This document shows positions 6,961-32,000 of a stretch of 32,000 nucleotides of DNA, piece by piece. A program made the translations under genes and the position numbers. The notes below the pieces were generated by a model. It had not been told where the DNA came from and ran no database searches. It saw only the letters and a list, made by a program, of their open reading frames with translations. How positions within the stretch are numbered: position 1 is the first letter of the stretch; each line of letters starts with the position of its first letter. The stretch comes from Candidatus Saccharimonadota bacterium (GTDB lineage: Bacteria > Patescibacteriota > Saccharimonadia > Saccharimonadales > UBA4665): NCBI GenBank assembly GCA_016700375.1, contig CP065016.1, positions 420,001-452,000 on the forward strand, written 5' to 3'.

Positions 6961-8499
6961 ATGGATTTTTTCAGCAAATACCGCAGACAGCTCACGACAA
7001 GACTCATTCTTATTATGGTTGTATTTCAGGTGCTTGTCATGGGTACCGGTTGGCTGCTTGCCAGCAGAGGAAACATATCAACAACCACCATACTTATTGC
7101 TATGTCTGCGCTGGGTCTGTGTGGCAGTGTGCTATTTGCTCGTTTTGCAAGCCACGCAAGTGCCGAGCCAATACACATAATCTGGCAGGCCATTCAACAC
7201 GTTGCCCCTCACGGAGATACGCAGCCGTCACCAAATATCGACACCCTGCAGTATGGCCGAGAACTTGTATCTAACCTTGTAAACCACGTCTACCAAATGG
7301 CTAGCGTCGTTAGCGACGTCGAAAAAACAAACACCAAGAAAATCCAAGATATTCATGCAAACTTTCTTGCAAATTCATTACCCTTGCCTATGGTTGTGCT
7401 CGATAAAGACGATAACATCGTCTACATCAACGACACTGCCGTCAAATATTTCGCGCTGCCAGTTGACGAGCTAGAAACCAAGAACGTATATACCGCACTC
7501 GACATGTCATTTTCCGATGACCAAACCCTGCACAGCTGGCTCCAAACTGTCCGCAGGAGTAGCGTCACCGCAAACATGCGCTGGGAGCGTGTTCGGATAG
7601 GCCTCCCTGGTCAAAAAGACACAAAACAGTTTGACCTTGCGGCGCACTTTAACAGCGACAACCCCATGGGCTACGAGACGCTGCTCATCCTGTTTGACCA
7701 CACCGAAGTCTACAGTCAGGACGACCAAGCAATGAGCTTTGTAGCACTAACCGTTCACGAACTACGCACCCCACTAACGCTGCTCCGAGGGTACATAGAG
7801 GTGTTTGACGAAGAGCTAGGGCCAACGCTCAATGCCGAACTAAAAGACTTTATGAAAAAAATGGATGCCAGCGCCCAGCAGCTTGCCGCCTTTGTCGATA
7901 ACATCCTCAACGTTGCCAAAATAGAGGACAACCAGCTCACGCTGCAGCTCAAAGAAGAAAAATGGGAAGATGTGCTGCGTACCGTTGTAAATGATTTGCG
8001 CCTGCGAGCCGGTGTACGTGGTGTAACTATTAAAGCCACCGTTGCTCGAGACCTACCGAGTGTCGGCGTAGATCGCTACAGTATTTACGAAGTCGTTGCC
8101 AACTTGCTCGATAACGCTATCAAATACTCCAGAGGCACCAAAGAAGTCCACCTAACCGCTGTGCTCAATGCCGACGGCATGGTCGAAACGAGCGTGAAAG
8201 ACTTTGGCCTCGGCATAGACGGCAGTATATTACCGCACATTTTCGACAAATTTTACCGCAACCACCGCAACCGCGCCCAAATAGGTGGCACCGGGCTTGG
8301 CCTGTACCTCAGCCGGGCAATTGTACAGGCCCACGGCGGTCAAATATCGGTGAACAGCAAAGTAGATGAGGGAAGCACATTTACATTTACCGTGTTACCA
8401 TACGCGAAGCTTGCAGAGTCGGGCAAAACAGGCAATACTAATGGCATAACCCGGGGAGCCCACGGCTGGATTAAAAACCACTCACTGTACCGGGACTAA
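6961..8499 (+). CDS. sensor histidine kinase
   Basis: 512 aa with two N-terminal TM helices and a PAS-like middle region. It has an H-box (VHELRTPLT), an N-box (LDNAIKYS) and a G-box (GGTGLGLYLSRAIVQAHGG). It is tightly packed against the preceding and following genes. Confidence 0.92.
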   Translation: MDFFSKYRRQLTTRLILIMVVFQVLVMGTGWLLASRGNISTTTILIAMSALGLCGSVLFARFASHASAEPIHIIWQAIQHVAPHGDTQPSPNIDTLQYGRELVSNLVNHVYQMASVVSDVEKTNTKKIQDIHANFLANSLPLPMVVLDKDDNIVYINDTAVKYFALPVDELETKNVYTALDMSFSDDQTLHSWLQTVRRSSVTANMRWERVRIGLPGQKDTKQFDLAAHFNSDNPMGYETLLILFDHTEVYSQDDQAMSFVALTVHELRTPLTLLRGYIEVFDEELGPTLNAELKDFMKKMDASAQQLAAFVDNILNVAKIEDNQLTLQLKEEKWEDVLRTVVNDLRLRAGVRGVTIKATVARDLPSVGVDRYSIYEVVANLLDNAIKYSRGTKEVHLTAVLNADGMVETSVKDFGLGIDGSILPHIFDKFYRNHRNRAQIGGTGLGLYLSRAIVQAHGGQISVNSKVDEGSTFTFTVLPYAKLAESGKTGNTNGITRGAHGWIKNHSLYRD

Positions 8500-16120: not shown

Positions 16121-16195
16121 TGGTGACCCCAAGGAGAATCGAACTCCTATTGCCGGGATGAGAACCCGATTTCCTAACCGTTAGAAGATGGGGCC
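16121..16195 (-). tRNA. tRNA-Glu (anticodon CUC), CCA encoded
   Basis: The reverse complement GGCCCCA TC TTCT AACGGTT AGGA AA TCGGG TTCTCAT CCCGG CAAT AGGAG TTCGATT CTCCT TGGGGTC A CCA folds as a cloverleaf. The 7-bp acceptor stem has one G-U pair, the T-loop is TTCGATT and the anticodon loop is TT-CTC-AT. Confidence 0.9.
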
Positions 16196-29501: not shown

Positions 29502-30032
29502 TTACCCCTCGGACTTCACTGGATAGCAGAGTGTGAGCATTTCATTGAGGTGCAAAATGTCTGGTTGAAGCACGTAAAAAACTAGTGGACCTTTTTGGGT
29601 TGTTTGTTTAAATGAATCGATTTCATTAAAGTACGGTGTCGGAAAGTCCATGCGGTCTGCCGTCAGAATATTACACTTATTAATAACTGCCGTAGCGGCC
29701 AGTATAGTATCGCCGTCTGAGATACTTTTTGCTTTATGCTTGACTGCATCATCACGCCCATAGCACGTGCTCAGGGCGGCAGCAATATCAAGGGTGTACT
29801 TGTCAACCGGGAAGGCCCGAAATCTGTCTACCACTGCTTTTGCCAACGGAACTCGAGCGTGTTCTAACCCTCTGTATATCTCGAACCGAACATATTCAGA
29901 GACAGCAGTTTCATATGATTTGGCAACCAATTCGATAACATCTATTGCAGCCTGCTTCGTCGCTGACTTGAATGCGTAGTCAATAATATTGGCGTCAAAT
30001 AGCACCACCCCAAATTGCTTGGATGGTTTCAT
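29502..30032 (-). CDS. PIN-domain protein (VapC-like putative ribonuclease toxin)
   Basis: 176 aa with acidic PIN residues in the expected order: VVLFDANIIDY (D), RFEIYRG (E), ISDGDTILAATA (D), ILTADRMDF (D). Confidence 0.72.
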   Translation of the reverse strand: MKPSKQFGVVLFDANIIDYAFKSATKQAAIDVIELVAKSYETAVSEYVRFEIYRGLEHARVPLAKAVVDRFRAFPVDKYTLDIAAALSTCYGRDDAVKHKAKSISDGDTILAATAVINKCNILTADRMDFPTPYFNEIDSFKQTTQKGPLVFYVLQPDILHLNEMLTLCYPVKSEG

Positions 30033-30034
30033 GC

Positions 30035-30151
30035 TTAATAGCTTGCTTGCTTGATGAGTTTGAGTACGGCCTTAATATCCGTCGGCTTATGGGGCTTCGA
30101 TGCGCGAATTGCTATGGGATTACCTGGTATTTTTATGACCGTTTCGTTCAT
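30035..30151 (-). CDS. 38-aa ORF immediately upstream of the PIN gene (candidate antitoxin)
   Basis: Manual translation of the minus strand gives MNETVIKIPGNPIAIRASKPHKPTDIKAVLKLIKQASY*. Its TAA stop ends 2 nt before the PIN ATG. It falls below the ORF-track length cutoff and has only a weak SD. Confidence 0.35.
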   Translation of the reverse strand: MNETVIKIPGNPIAIRASKPHKPTDIKAVLKLIKQASY

Positions 30152-30374
30152 ACTTCTATGGTCTCACACACTCTGCTCGAGCGCAACCGCAACGCATACC
30201 GAGAGGTGCGCATACCGCATACATAAAAAGACCACCGAGAGAGTGAGGATTGCCAGTGGCAATCCTCAAGGCCAGAAACTGATTGCGAGCTATGCTTGCA
30301 GCCAGTTGAGGCGAGGTCGCAACTGATTGCCAGCTTGCTGGCAGTAGGATTGTGACTGGGCACCGTATCTGCGA

Positions 30375-30422
30375 CAAACAAAAAAGGTCAGTAGAGGGGG
30401 TGGGCACCGCTACTGACCTTTT
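30375..30422 (-). terminator. strong intrinsic terminator
   Basis: On the minus strand AAGGTCAGTAG-cggtgcccaccccct-CTACTGACCTT forms an 11-bp perfect stem, followed by TTTTTGTTTG. Confidence 0.8.
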
Positions 30423-30794
30423 ATGGAGCCGAACACGTCGGCTCCCTCCACCCTTCAACCCACCAAGATGAGTGAAGCATCGAAACATCTATGAAATCAA
30501 CGATGTCGTGCCTCTCCCGCTTTCGCAGAAAGAACCGTTCAGGCTCACTACCAGTATCTGGGGCCGACTGGTGCAAGCACCTGTCGAACCTAGTTAAAGG
30601 GGTTAGTTTGTTTTAGAACGCTTCCGGCTGGTTAAAGCCAGAGAACGCCAAGAGAAAAGTGGAGGGTAACAACTTTTGGTATGGCACGTTCTAAAACAAT
30701 CTAACAATTTCCTCTGGCGACAAGTCACCGGAGGCGTTAGAATGGGGATATAAGGTGCAAAAGTGGTCACTACAAGAGTGACAGACACTTATGA
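30378..30794 (-). ncRNA. candidate ~417-nt structured non-coding RNA of unknown class
   Basis: The locus is bounded by a consensus promoter (30801-30829) and the terminator at 30375-30422, with no convincing ORF. It has an 11-bp long-range helix (30610-30620/30687-30697), three CUUG-capped helices and one GAAA-capped helix. Confidence 0.6.
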
Positions 30795-30800
30795 GTTGCT

Positions 30801-30829
30801 ATTTTAGCAAAAAAGTGTCACAGTGTCAA
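30801..30829 (-). promoter_or_regulatory. near-consensus sigma70 promoter (TTGACA-17-TAAAAT) on the minus strand
   Basis: The minus strand reads TTGACActgtgacacttttttgcTAAAAT. The -35 is the complement of 30824-30829, the -10 is the complement of 30801-30806, and the spacer is exactly 17 nt. Confidence 0.7.
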
Positions 30830-30848
30830 TACTTATTCATTTTTTGGT

Positions 30849-31712
30849 ATGAAAGTAAATAAAGTTACATTAAAGGATAATGCTTATCCTACAGTTCTAA
30901 AGGACATAGCGTCACCGCCAAAAGAACTATTCTACCTGGGGGCAGAGCCAGATGCTTGGCTGAGTCGGCCTCGTGTTGCCGTAGTCGGTAGCCGTGGAGT
31001 AACACCATACGGACGTACCGTGACCGAACAGCTTGTGGGGCAACTTGCAGAGCGGGGCATTACTATTGTGAGCGGCTTAGCACTGGGCGTTGACGCCATC
31101 GCTCACGAGGCAGCCTTGAGGCACGGTGGCCTACACATAGCTGTGCTCGCAAATGGACTCGACGAAATATACCCGGCCAGCAACACCAATCTCGCACGTC
31201 GTCTCCTGGAGCAGGGCGGTGCGATTATTTCAGAATATCCGGTGGGCACACCGAGCCTAAAGCAGCATTTTATTGCACGTAACCGGATTGTTGCCGGTCT
31301 GAGTAATGCGCTCCTAATCATCGAGGCAACCGACAAGAGCGGGACCCTACACACCGCACGTTTTGCGCTCGAGCAAGGGCGAGATGTGCTTGTTGTGCCG
31401 GGTAATATTACCAGCCCGAACAGCGTGGGGTGCAATCAGCTAATAAAATCAGGAGCAACTCCTGTCACCTCTGTTGATGACATCCTGTTTGCGCTAGGGA
31501 CAAAAAACCTCACCACAACCTCGTATGTACACAAGGGTGACACTGCCGACGAGCAGGCAATCCTTGACCTCCTCTATAACGGTGTCAGCGACGCGCATGA
31601 CCTCCTTGAGCAATCAAAGTTGAACCCAGCGCTTTTCACCCAAACACTCACCATGCTCGAACTCTCCGGCAAAATCCACCCACTCGGCGCAAACCACTGG
31701 GCGCCAAGTTAA
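30849..31712 (+). CDS. dprA: DNA-processing protein DprA (Smf)
   Basis: 287 aa. VAVVGSRGVTPYG, SGLALGVDAIAHEAAL, ARNRIVAGLS and GTLHTARFALEQGRDVLVVPG are canonical DprA Rossmann-fold blocks. Confidence 0.93.
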   Translation: MKVNKVTLKDNAYPTVLKDIASPPKELFYLGAEPDAWLSRPRVAVVGSRGVTPYGRTVTEQLVGQLAERGITIVSGLALGVDAIAHEAALRHGGLHIAVLANGLDEIYPASNTNLARRLLEQGGAIISEYPVGTPSLKQHFIARNRIVAGLSNALLIIEATDKSGTLHTARFALEQGRDVLVVPGNITSPNSVGCNQLIKSGATPVTSVDDILFALGTKNLTTTSYVHKGDTADEQAILDLLYNGVSDAHDLLEQSKLNPALFTQTLTMLELSGKIHPLGANHWAPS

Positions 31713-32000
31713 GGAGGACCTTGTCCTCCTCGCTGGTTCGGAATGAATCCGAACTCAGCTCTCCTCCTGCCCTAAAGCTCGGCTATCGCCTCGTTCGTGT
31801 GGGGTTATCAGGAAGCTTGTCTTAAGGAGGACCTTGTCCTCCTCGCTGGTTCGGAATGAATCCGAACTCAGCTCTCCTCCTGCCCTAAAGCTCGGCTATC
31901 GCCTCGTTCGTGTGGGGTTATCAGGAAGCTTGTCTTAAGGAGGACCTTGTCCTCCTCGCTGGTTCGGAATGAATCCGAACTCAGCTCTCCTCCTGCCCTA
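31709..32000 (+). repeat. family B: head-to-tail tandem array of a 113-bp unit (2.6 copies visible, runs off the window)
   Basis: AAGGAGGACCTTGTCCTCCTCGCTGGTTCGGAATGAATCCGAAC... starts at 31711, 31824 and 31937 (period 113) and the copies are apparently identical. The dprA stop TAA (31710-31712) overlaps the first unit. Confidence 0.95.

Follow-up and report, generated by a model that had tools for sequence, protein, structure and literature searches.

The RNAIII of Staphylococcus aureus is about 0.5 kb long, has its own promoter and terminator, is divergent from a neighbouring operon, and carries many hairpins under long-range helices, with C-rich loops that include the loop of the terminator. 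In the raiA motif RNA, the proteins presumed to bind an exposed conserved single-stranded segment are KhpA and KhpB, which have KH domains (PMC10861870, PMC12968392), and the ROOL and GOLLD RNAs are associated with phages and tRNA clusters (PMC12286853). No validated small RNAs have been reported in Saccharibacteria, whose genomes of ~1 Mb are ~94% coding (bioRxiv 10.1101/2022.03.25.485537). Here we describe a predicted RNA encoded upstream of dprA in a 32,000-nt stretch of the genome of a tiny parasitic Candidatus Saccharimonadota bacterium (Saccharimonadales; contig CP065016.1, positions 420,001 to 452,000). This stretch is referred to as the window; its positions serve as coordinates, and the RNA is read on its minus strand. 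An initial annotation had proposed the locus as a discrete structured RNA unit. We are highly confident that it represents a real and new family of structured non-coding RNA, a single hairpin of which recurs in uncultured viral contigs. The newness lies in family membership, and the function may prove to be of a familiar type.

Conservation and fold of the RNA gene

With an alignment of 22 DprA proteins, 80 loci were retrieved from as many species-level genomes; these are all Saccharimonadia-type metagenome-assembled genomes, with DprA identities of 47–95%. A single-sequence nhmmer search with the RNA matches 65 of the 80 loci, always directly upstream of and divergent from dprA. A profile built from 52 homologues gives a match immediately upstream of dprA in 79 of the 80, and the locus that it misses, L069, still has the diagnostic blocks. 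Scanning metagenomes with one conserved 15-mer yielded 39 further homologues, of which 30 adjoin dprA and the rest lie on short contigs. About 90 nt of the RNA are nearly invariant; the invariant blocks are present in 110–116 of 117 full-length members, while DprA identity drops to 47%. A promoter-like element is found at 68 of 76 homologous loci and a U-tract after the terminal hairpin at 74 of 76. The usual gene order is der, pth, the RNA on the opposite strand, and dprA, with pth convergent and dprA divergent.

The predicted fold is far more stable than expected from composition. The 423-nt stretch has a minimum free energy of −162.8 kcal/mol compared with −119.7 ± 5.5 in dinucleotide shuffles (z = −7.79), and none of the 100 shuffles is as stable as the native fold. 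Covariation was counted on MAFFT alignments not fitted to the structure (49 5′ domains and 40 3′ domains), with a statistic that is unaware of phylogeny. In the 5′ domain, the long-range helix P3 and its GUUAG:CUAAC extension are paired in 98.3% of the cells, with 10 of 17 pairs altered on both sides. The P3 covariation score is reached by none of 500 shuffles, and sliding one strand by 1–3 columns lowers the pairing to 29–47%. Similarly, the 3′-domain helices P4 and Pc and the terminator stem are together 97.7% paired, 13 of their 27 pairs are altered on both sides, and none of 500 shuffles matches the observed covariation. Taken individually, P3, P4, Pc and the terminator stem are paired at 92.8–99.4%, against about 29–64% in the slid-strand controls for the helices of both domains. 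The locus thus has the features of a generic stand-alone structured non-coding RNA gene, namely a promoter, a covarying fold and no conserved open reading frame (ORF), with transcription predicted. The proposal of a discrete structured unit is upheld by the folding z score, the covarying helices and the conserved, syntenic locus.

Helix P4 (CCCUUUAAC:GUUGAAGGG) is a long-range pairing that closes the 3′ domain and was predicted independently by RNAalifold. It is mostly invariant, and its changes are compensatory. For instance, the typical ..UUUAAC of the B4 strand with GUU.. of the B5 strand becomes ..UUUAAG with CUU.. in L014, L017, L018 and L050, ..UUUAAA with UUU.. in L030 and L076, CCCUUUGUC with GACGAAGGG in L078, and CUUCAAC with GUUGAAG in L069. 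At the key pair of Pc, 17 sequences have C-G, 13 have U-A, 6 have U-G and 3 have A-U. The terminator stem is nearly free in sequence and yet 99.4% paired, with 10 of 12 pairs altered on both sides. Its top two pairs, which close the loop, differ between the large form (GG..CC) and the compact form (GA..UU) of the RNA, and therefore the truly invariant loop is the 9-mer UGCCCACCC.

The block layout was read from the alignments, in which variable hairpins are gained or lost between near-invariant blocks (Table 1). The loop of the B3 hairpin, UACCCUCC, is present in 116 of 117 members (loop consensus YUACCCUCC) on a stem that covaries, as in the CUUAAGG/CCUUAAG of L070. Block B1 has ACCUU in 115 of 117 members; its C-run is missing in L030, so that B1 is less strict than the other blocks. 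P3 was also found by a repeat finder (inverted repeat I1, 19 nt, 95% complementary), and it changes to GCAUGCAAUG/CAUUGCAUGC in compact forms. Compact members of ~270 nt, such as L074 from a complete genome, retain all blocks and have lost the optional hairpins. The invariant GUUAG can pair with the CUAAC at the end of B1 or with a second CUAAC at 30602–30606, in a mutually exclusive manner, and the pairing with the downstream copy comprises 5 invariant pairs. GUUAG with its two CUAAC partners may form a conformational switch. A second GUUAG occurs in L068, L038, L076 and L020, where both CUAAC copies are pairable. A GCCU/AGGC helix around the GAAA hairpin was considered and abandoned, since its complementarity is inconsistent across members in an alignment judged by eye.

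Table 1. Predicted RNA gene, its parts from 5′ to 3′, and copies of the RNA 3′ end at insertions in relatives
Feature	Position	Strand	Sequence and remarks
Candidate RNA	30380–30794	−	~415 nt predicted; family lengths 254–528 nt
Predicted promoter	30801–30829	−	−35 TTGACA 30824–30829; 17-nt spacer with TG extension; −10 TAAAAT 30801–30806
P1, 5′ hairpin	30761–30790	−	sequence varies, hairpin kept in relatives (e.g. GUAAG..CUUAC versus GAUUGGUUA..UAACCAAA)
B1	30736–30758	−	GCACCUUAUAUCCCCAUUCUAAC; conserved C-rich joining segment, 3′ end CUAAC 30736–30740
P2a	30711–30735	−	CUUG-capped hairpin; variable insertion, many relatives without P2a
Invariant segment	30697–30705	−	GUUAGAUUG; GUUAG in 115 of 117 members
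P3, 5′ strand	30687–30698	−	UGUUUUAGAACG; long-range helix
B3 hairpin	30655–30677	−	AAAAGU-UGUUACCCUCC-ACUUUU; within P3; loop 30661–30671 with invariant UACCCUCC
P3b	30624–30643	−	variable hairpin enclosed by P3
P3, 3′ strand	30609–30620	−	CGUUCUAAAACA; long-range helix
B4	30593–30607	−	ACUAACCCCUUUAAC; contains P4 5′ strand CCCUUUAAC, 30593–30601
CUUG-capped hairpin	30565–30586	−	variable region of 3′ domain
Pc, 5′ strand	30544–30549	−	AGUGAG; inner helix of 3′ domain
GAAA-capped hairpin	30513–30534	−	hairpin kept, sequence varies
Hairpin	30481–30508	−	CGACAUCG..GAUGUUUCG; hairpin kept, sequence varies
Pc, 3′ strand	30471–30477	−	CUUCACU; inner helix of 3′ domain
B5	30451–30464	−	GGUGGGUUGAAGGG; contains P4 3′ strand GUUGAAGGG, 30451–30459
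Optional hairpin	30425–30445	−	GGAGCCG-ACGUGUU-CGGCUCC; compact forms and some large forms without it
Terminal hairpin and U-tract (predicted intrinsic terminator)	30380–30422	−	loop UGCCCACCC 30398–30406; UUUUUU tract
RNA 3′-end copies, locus L005	2860–2952, 3514–3985
RNA 3′-end copies, locus L057	3270–3306, 3365–3643
RNA 3′-end copy, locus L023	3296–3363
RNA 3′-end copy, locus L041	3315–3393

Transcription of the RNA seems to start at a strong sigma-70-type promoter of its own and to stop at an intrinsic terminator. In a promoter scan the promoter matches 11 of 12 consensus positions, and transcription would start near 30794. The arms of the terminator were recovered by the repeat finder (inverted repeat I2); a simple terminator scan misses this hairpin, since its loop exceeds the 8-nt limit of the scan. 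A hairpin, a U-tract and a covarying stem are all present as in intrinsic terminators, with termination activity as a prediction. In all loci, ~20 nt separate the −35 box from the start codon of dprA. In the window the box overlaps a likely dprA promoter on the other strand (30778–30848, AATACT), and the promoter scan also lists GTGACA-16-TATTTT as a plus-strand promoter-like site at the RNA 5′ end. The back-to-back overlapping promoters of the RNA and dprA recur in all loci and may couple the expression of both. Elsewhere in the window, many gene starts (for example 1876, 3109, 5605, 26155 and 27338) have TATACT, TACAAT or TATAAT 6–10 nt before the start and no Shine-Dalgarno sequence, which suggests that leaderless mRNAs are widespread in this genome.

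Most of what the initial annotation had read at this locus is borne out. The promoter lies where it was placed, as does the terminator with its hairpin and T-tract. The local hairpins that it listed are present (P1, P2a, the CUUG- and GAAA-capped hairpins of the 3′ domain and, likewise, the optional hairpin), and its long-range helix is P3, which covaries in relatives. The recurrent stable tetraloops that it took as a hallmark of the fold have to be given up as such, because the CUUG and GAAA hairpins are variable and dispensable parts in relatives. Of the neighbours that it pointed to, the divergent dprA is conserved, as is pth, whereas the gene of a PIN-domain toxin is not. According to Pfam, DprA is encoded divergently in the window and the PIN-domain gene and Pth lie on the other side of the RNA. 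The PIN gene occurs only in the window and its closest relative, as one of many variable downstream insertions.

Terminal hairpin in viral contigs

Insertions cluster in a hot spot immediately downstream of the RNA gene. Partial or hybrid second copies of the RNA 3′ end, consisting of the loop core and a non-matching half-stem, flank small insertions there, as at tRNA/tmRNA integration sites (Table 1). Because the RNA 3′ ends are duplicated beside small insertions in L005 and L057, an integration site was suspected and the viral contigs of IMG/VR were scanned for the 17-mer GCGGTGCCCACCCCCTC. It occurs in 53 contigs, many of them 35–45 kb, and in nearly all it forms a hairpin loop, on stems that vary between contigs. 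As a chance baseline, a 15-mer of the same RNA that is unrelated in viruses gave 71 chance matches (~70 per 15-mer), and therefore ~4–5 matches are expected by chance for the 17-mer. The compact-type loop GAUGCCCACCCUU has stems of at least 6 bp in 50 of 81 sampled viral matches, and four control 9-mers gave no hairpins in viral contigs. Overall, the terminal hairpin is found in more than 100 uncultured viral contigs. The host DNA examined, 670 kb in all, has the motif nowhere outside this RNA except in the duplications of L005 and L057. The loop-closing pairs of the viral hairpins match the two host types.

The viral hairpins are strand-specific and are often placed in 5′ untranslated regions or in small units with a promoter. 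Among 103 non-redundant hairpins, 22% follow a −10-like box at a distance of 3–10 nt (background, 7.6%), and 16% are followed by a U-tract. A Shine-Dalgarno sequence and an ORF start are found within 120 nt downstream at 30 of the 103 on the same strand and at 4 of the 103 on the opposite strand. Recurrent positions are the gap between portal and scaffold genes, the upstream side of RecT/exonuclease operons, the vicinity of small-terminase-like genes, the space between tRNA genes (L102, L103), and minimal units made of promoter, hairpin and U-tract. Among the 56 recurrent flanking families, PHROG identifies terminase, exonuclease, Erf, head, portal and primase, and a single integrase. The strand bias of the hairpin and the nature of the flanking genes therefore indicate that the module acts at the RNA level in phage transcripts and is generally not an attP site; an attP assignment of the viral hairpins was dropped on the same grounds, their flanking genes being structural, recombination and replication genes.

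The other blocks of the RNA, searched as exact B3 and B4 motifs, give only chance-level matches in viral contigs, with the exception of L125 (IMGVR_UViG_3300049064_000004). At 7938–8377 this contig holds a complete RNA with its promoter, without dprA, beside RecT-like and exonuclease/FtsK-like genes; it could be either a phage-borne copy or a prophage-host junction. A second hairpin copy, inverted, lies 1.46 kb away. From the matched loop types and L125, the viral contigs would infect Saccharibacteria.

Several other arrangements were seen among the viral contigs. In one phage group (L086, L090, L097, L099, L105, L108, L113, L114, L116 and L195) the hairpin belongs to a larger conserved motif in the portal-scaffold gap that resembles a 5′ untranslated region, in the order GUUGAU, UGCCCACCC hairpin, CCAGC-UUU-GCUGG, AGAACAAAUCU, AAGGAG and the start of a ~270-aa acidic protein; this motif has no Rfam match. 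In L102 and L103 the hairpin lies between two tRNA genes of phage clusters, where tRNA processing would free a small RNA. Apparent tiny phage transcription units (L100, L121, L127/L128, L133, L126, L112, L088, L143, L151, L178 and L207) consist of an extended −10 promoter, sometimes an extra small hairpin, often with CCUCC within its loop, the UGCCCACCC hairpin and a U-tract. In the viral contig L378, at 1924–2045, an exact GUUGUUACCCUCCAC pairs with an upstream UGGAGGGUAAC to form a long hairpin just before a gene start; its similarity to block B3 is probably coincidental.

Two further elements of the window flank the RNA gene and dprA. Between the RNA terminator and a 38-codon ORF with the PIN-domain gene (29502–30151) lies a 220-nt non-coding spacer (30156–30378), which holds a perfect palindrome, TGAGGATTGCCA/TGGCAATCCTCA, at 30244–30268 and direct repeats AACTGATTGC(G/C)AGCT at 30277 and 30321. 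The spacer resembles the operator region of an inserted cassette of toxin-antitoxin-like type, and this cassette is not conserved in relatives. On the other side, a perfect 113-bp tandem repeat runs from the dprA stop codon to the window end (31709–32000, at least 2.6 copies, 100% identity). Each unit has two hairpins (AAGGAGGAC..GUCCUCCU and GGUUCGGA..UCCGAAC) and an identical 34-codon ORF. The repeat could be a satellite, an array of unknown nature or an assembly artefact.

Possible functions and competing explanations

Conservation of ~90 invariant nt while DprA falls to 47% argues for a ribonucleoprotein (RNP) scaffold, a sequestering RNA or a catalytic RNA over a small RNA conserved only in its seeds. 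Moreover, since these genomes are tiny and dense, a class-wide, strongly promoted RNA of 250–530 nt likely does something central. We propose that the RNA may act in trans as a housekeeping-type scaffold or sequestering RNA. The conserved partner in the cell to which its invariant C-rich loops would bind could be a G-rich RNA or a protein that binds single-stranded RNA, and the GGGUGGG strand of the RNA itself may be a docking site for the terminal hairpin. Between GGGUGGG(U) and the terminal loop, (G)CCCACCC, complementarity is perfect; it spans 7–8 bp in most members and is limited to 6 bp in the window, where the matching GGUGGG lies at 30459–30464 in B5. This pairing would stack on P4 and make a pseudoknot. 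In its simplest register the pseudoknot is disfavoured by three members that carry GUGCG with the loop unchanged. Phages keep a host-type hairpin, and there must therefore be something of use to them that it recruits or competes for. They may carry the hairpin in their transcripts to engage or compete for the host partner, for which a host RNA-binding protein and the G-rich strand of the RNA are the candidates. We put this partner-binding or scaffold mechanism forward tentatively and regard it, as worded, as doubtful. The blend of new family and mechanism, taken as the best explanation of the whole, commands about as much belief as disbelief.

Several points weigh against this account. Nothing that was tested points to a partner: the window shows no enrichment of complements to the B3 loop (18 found, 16.4 expected) or to the terminal loop. 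The GGGUGGG:loop pseudoknot has no covariation signal, both sides being invariant, and the GUGCG members break its simplest register. The host of the viral contigs is read from loop types and one contig, and their nearest phage relative in GenBank is very distant. The promoter, transcription start and terminator of the RNA all stand as predictions. The RNA gene is presumably present in a single copy per genome, and we take separate genes for RNase P RNA, transfer-messenger RNA (tmRNA) and signal recognition particle (SRP) RNA to exist elsewhere in the genome. Searches of the literature by topic and motif show no description of this RNA; their coverage of subscription journals is thin, so that a prior description is possible.

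Alternatively, the RNA could be a base-pairing regulator like Staphylococcus RNAIII, with C-rich loops that seed on G-rich targets such as Shine-Dalgarno sequences in host or phage mRNA. The invariant loops UACCCUCC, which holds the anti-Shine-Dalgarno core CCUCC, and UGCCCACCC would suit this role, as would the RNA's own promoter and terminator and its many hairpins closed by long-range helices. The small phage transcripts of L100, L121 and L101, moreover, join a CCUCC-containing hairpin to the terminal hairpin. Nevertheless, ~90 nt invariant throughout the class and a nested core are more typical of RNP or catalytic RNAs. Many genes of the window look leaderless, with a −10 box 6–10 nt before the ATG, so that Shine-Dalgarno targets would be few, and the missing enrichment of B3-loop complements also speaks against seeding. 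Furthermore, if a phage sequence also occurred in a repressor, one would expect the phages to shed it and not to retain it. We consider a regulator of this kind unlikely.

The terminal loop could instead work at the DNA level, as an attachment site, with the RNA 3′ end as an integration target like those in tRNA and tmRNA genes and the viral copies as attP cores. The roughly one copy per viral locus and per host locus, the variable island downstream of the RNA, and the agreement of loop-closing pairs between host and virus types fit this proposal. So do the duplicated or hybrid 3′ ends that flank insertions in L005 and L057 and the displaced terminal piece in L023 and L041. However, integrase is a single one of the 56 recurrent flanking families, and the hairpins sit in portal-scaffold gaps, by RecT/exonuclease genes, between tRNAs and right after −10 boxes. 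The orientation bias towards downstream genes (30 versus 4) points to the RNA level, and the viral stems are self-complementary and mutually different, unlike conserved recombinase-binding arms. An attachment site as the general explanation is thus improbable, and such a role could apply to a minority of elements alongside an RNA-level role. We attach similarly little credence to the idea of a previously unknown RNA-centred machine with this RNA as its catalytic or guide subunit. In it, the invariant G-rich strand GGGUGGGU would base-pair with UGCCCACCC hairpins, in cis on the RNA's own 3′ hairpin and in trans on other transcripts. The pseudoknotted core would then process, protect or remodel the recognised RNAs, and the phage hairpin would be an entry tag. 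If true, this would amount to a new housekeeping ribozyme, or an RNA-guided system for RNA recognition, confined to the Candidate Phyla Radiation (CPR).

Action in cis is less probable still. The RNA might be a long leader or attenuator, or might control dprA through the back-to-back overlapping promoters, as the −35 box ~20 nt from the dprA start in all loci, the plus-strand promoter-like site over the RNA 5′ end and the terminator at the end of the unit, like that of riboswitch leaders, could suggest. In many loci, however, the convergent pth ends right at the RNA 3′ end, so that there is no downstream gene to regulate or to be reached by read-through, and the RNA cannot be a leader. In other loci unrelated genes are inserted there, and these vary from locus to locus, an arrangement that does not fit a riboswitch or other cis leader. 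Promoter occlusion would have no need of covarying helices and invariant loops 100–400 nt from the promoter, and L125 has the complete RNA without dprA. Competition with the dprA promoter is possible as a second role, which cannot explain the fold.

A highly diverged version of a known RNA, such as RNase P RNA, tmRNA, 6S RNA, SRP RNA or raiA, would agree with the size, the single-copy appearance, the strong promoter and the housekeeping-level conservation, and we judge it very improbable. The initial annotation could not match the locus to a known family, and cmscan against Rfam 15 agrees, with no match for the RNA at gathering or at E ≤ 10 in the window, 16 relatives and the compact variant. 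At gathering thresholds the window gives only a tRNA-Glu (16124–16195), the 16 relatives give nothing and 12 viral loci give one tRNA; at E ≤ 10 with lax filters only palindrome-driven microRNA models and terminator-driven small RNA models appear, far below their gathering scores. The sequence GGGUUGAAGGGUG superficially resembles GGGUGAAAGGGUG of RNase P RNA. A kinship drawn from this likeness to conserved region (CR) II was rejected, as there is no P4 core and no model match. The RNase P RNA model has no match at E ≤ 10, the conserved blocks lack CR-I (GAGGAAAGUCC) and CR-V (ACAGAA..GGCUUA), and the GAGGAAAU of the window sits in a non-conserved hairpin. For tmRNA, ARAGORN is negative in the window and 42 loci, the ends are unpaired, and there is no tRNA-like domain, CCA or conserved tag frame. 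The motif GGUUCGAC, a first hint of tmRNA, is specific to the window, and the same holds for the GGUUCGACAGG in the middle of the RNA that had prompted a permuted tmRNA, likewise rejected on the negative ARAGORN result.

Other known classes fare no better. The 6S RNA is ~180 nt long, with ends that form a closing stem and a large central bubble; here all members have a local hairpin at the 5′ end and a local terminator at the 3′ end, and Rfam gives no 6S match. The unpaired ends likewise conflict with P1 of raiA, which needs pairing. SRP RNA is recognised by domain IV with a symmetric and an asymmetric loop and a GNAR tetraloop. No Rfam match and no domain IV were found, and the GGAA within CCGGAAG of the window is not conserved. 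With raiA, only the pentamer UUAGA, which recalls the linker UUAGA(C/A)GUAA (PMC12968392), and the neighbourhood of a competence gene (PMC10861870) are in common, and homology was not accepted on these. Type III antitoxin RNAs consist of ~36-nt tandem direct repeats immediately upstream of the toxin gene, whereas 30156–30800 has no tandem repeats and the PIN gene is not family-wide. Finally, GUUUUAGAGC had raised the question of a natural single guide RNA (sgRNA) or CRISPR repeat, which was rejected. A CRISPR repeat, trans-activating CRISPR RNA (tracrRNA) or sgRNA would have a conserved repeat/anti-repeat and associated cas or OMEGA nuclease genes, whereas the helix GUUUUAGAGCG/CGCUCUAAAAC covaries to unrelated sequences and the neighbours are der, pth and dprA.

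The remaining proposal, that the region encodes the 61-residue protein of the GTG ORF at 30603–30788, can be set aside with near certainty: the ORF exists and, as initially annotated, is the only sizeable one and has no Shine-Dalgarno sequence, but its frame is not conserved and is broken by insertions and deletions in relatives, tblastn pieces switch frame within one sequence, the longest ORFs on the RNA strand are 12–92 aa among members and non-homologous, no Pfam family scores above threshold, and substitutions in the region track base pairing, not codons.

Relation to known RNAs

Of the systems compared, phage RNA mimics such as pseudo-ToxI, solitary-repeat RNA anti-CRISPRs and prophage anti-small RNAs share with the viral hairpins a short, promoter-driven module of a host non-coding RNA that tracks the host variant. 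In the known mimics the host RNA belongs to a defence system or a toxin-antitoxin system or is a small RNA with a known partner, whereas here it is a core syntenic gene. Many of the viral copies here are placed in 5′ untranslated regions of structural genes and are not free decoys. A single hairpin copied by phages offers a bait for the partner and suggests a host-virus interaction by RNA mimicry, and the hairpin may mark phages for assignment to Saccharibacteria hosts. Saccharibacteria are now genetically tractable by natural transformation (PMC10633639).

The tRNA and tmRNA genes that serve as integration sites are similar in their high conservation, single copy, strong promoter and adjacent variable island, and in the duplication of the 3′ end by inserted DNA, as in L005 and L057. 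This RNA differs from them in lacking a tRNA-like domain, CCA and a tag frame, and its viral copies are mostly away from integrases. RNAIII resembles it in architecture. However, RNAIII encodes a peptide, is found in one genus and is conserved in its seeds, while this RNA has ~90 invariant nt and a nested core throughout the class.

In kind, the RNA most resembles the raiA motif RNA of Bacillota and Actinomycetota (PMC10861870, PMC12968392), and by the comparisons made here it belongs to none of the compared families. Both are, the present one by prediction, single-copy, independently transcribed structured RNAs. Both are at least ~200–250 nt long, carry many invariant nucleotides and optional stems at the periphery, have minimal variants and unknown biochemistry, and typically adjoin a natural-competence gene (comFC for raiA, dprA here). 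In raiA, P1 joins the 5′ and 3′ ends around a P3a/P3b-P4-PK1-PK2 core. The ends of the present RNA form a local hairpin at the 5′ side and a terminator at the 3′ side, there is no end-closing helix, and only UUAGA is shared, within GUUAGAUUG. The helix order, invariant sequences and phylum are different as well, and the Rfam raiA model gives no match at E ≤ 10. A phage-borne module of raiA is not reported in PMC10861870 and PMC12968392. The OLE, ROOL and GOLLD RNAs (PMC12286853) are also large and elaborately folded, with unknown or emerging function, and were found by comparative genomics. The present RNA has no Rfam match, is smaller, chromosomal and class-wide, and only one of its hairpins occurs in phages. 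With a sequence conservation at the level of RNase P RNA or raiA, it would be a new entry on the short list of large bacterial RNAs with unknown biochemistry.

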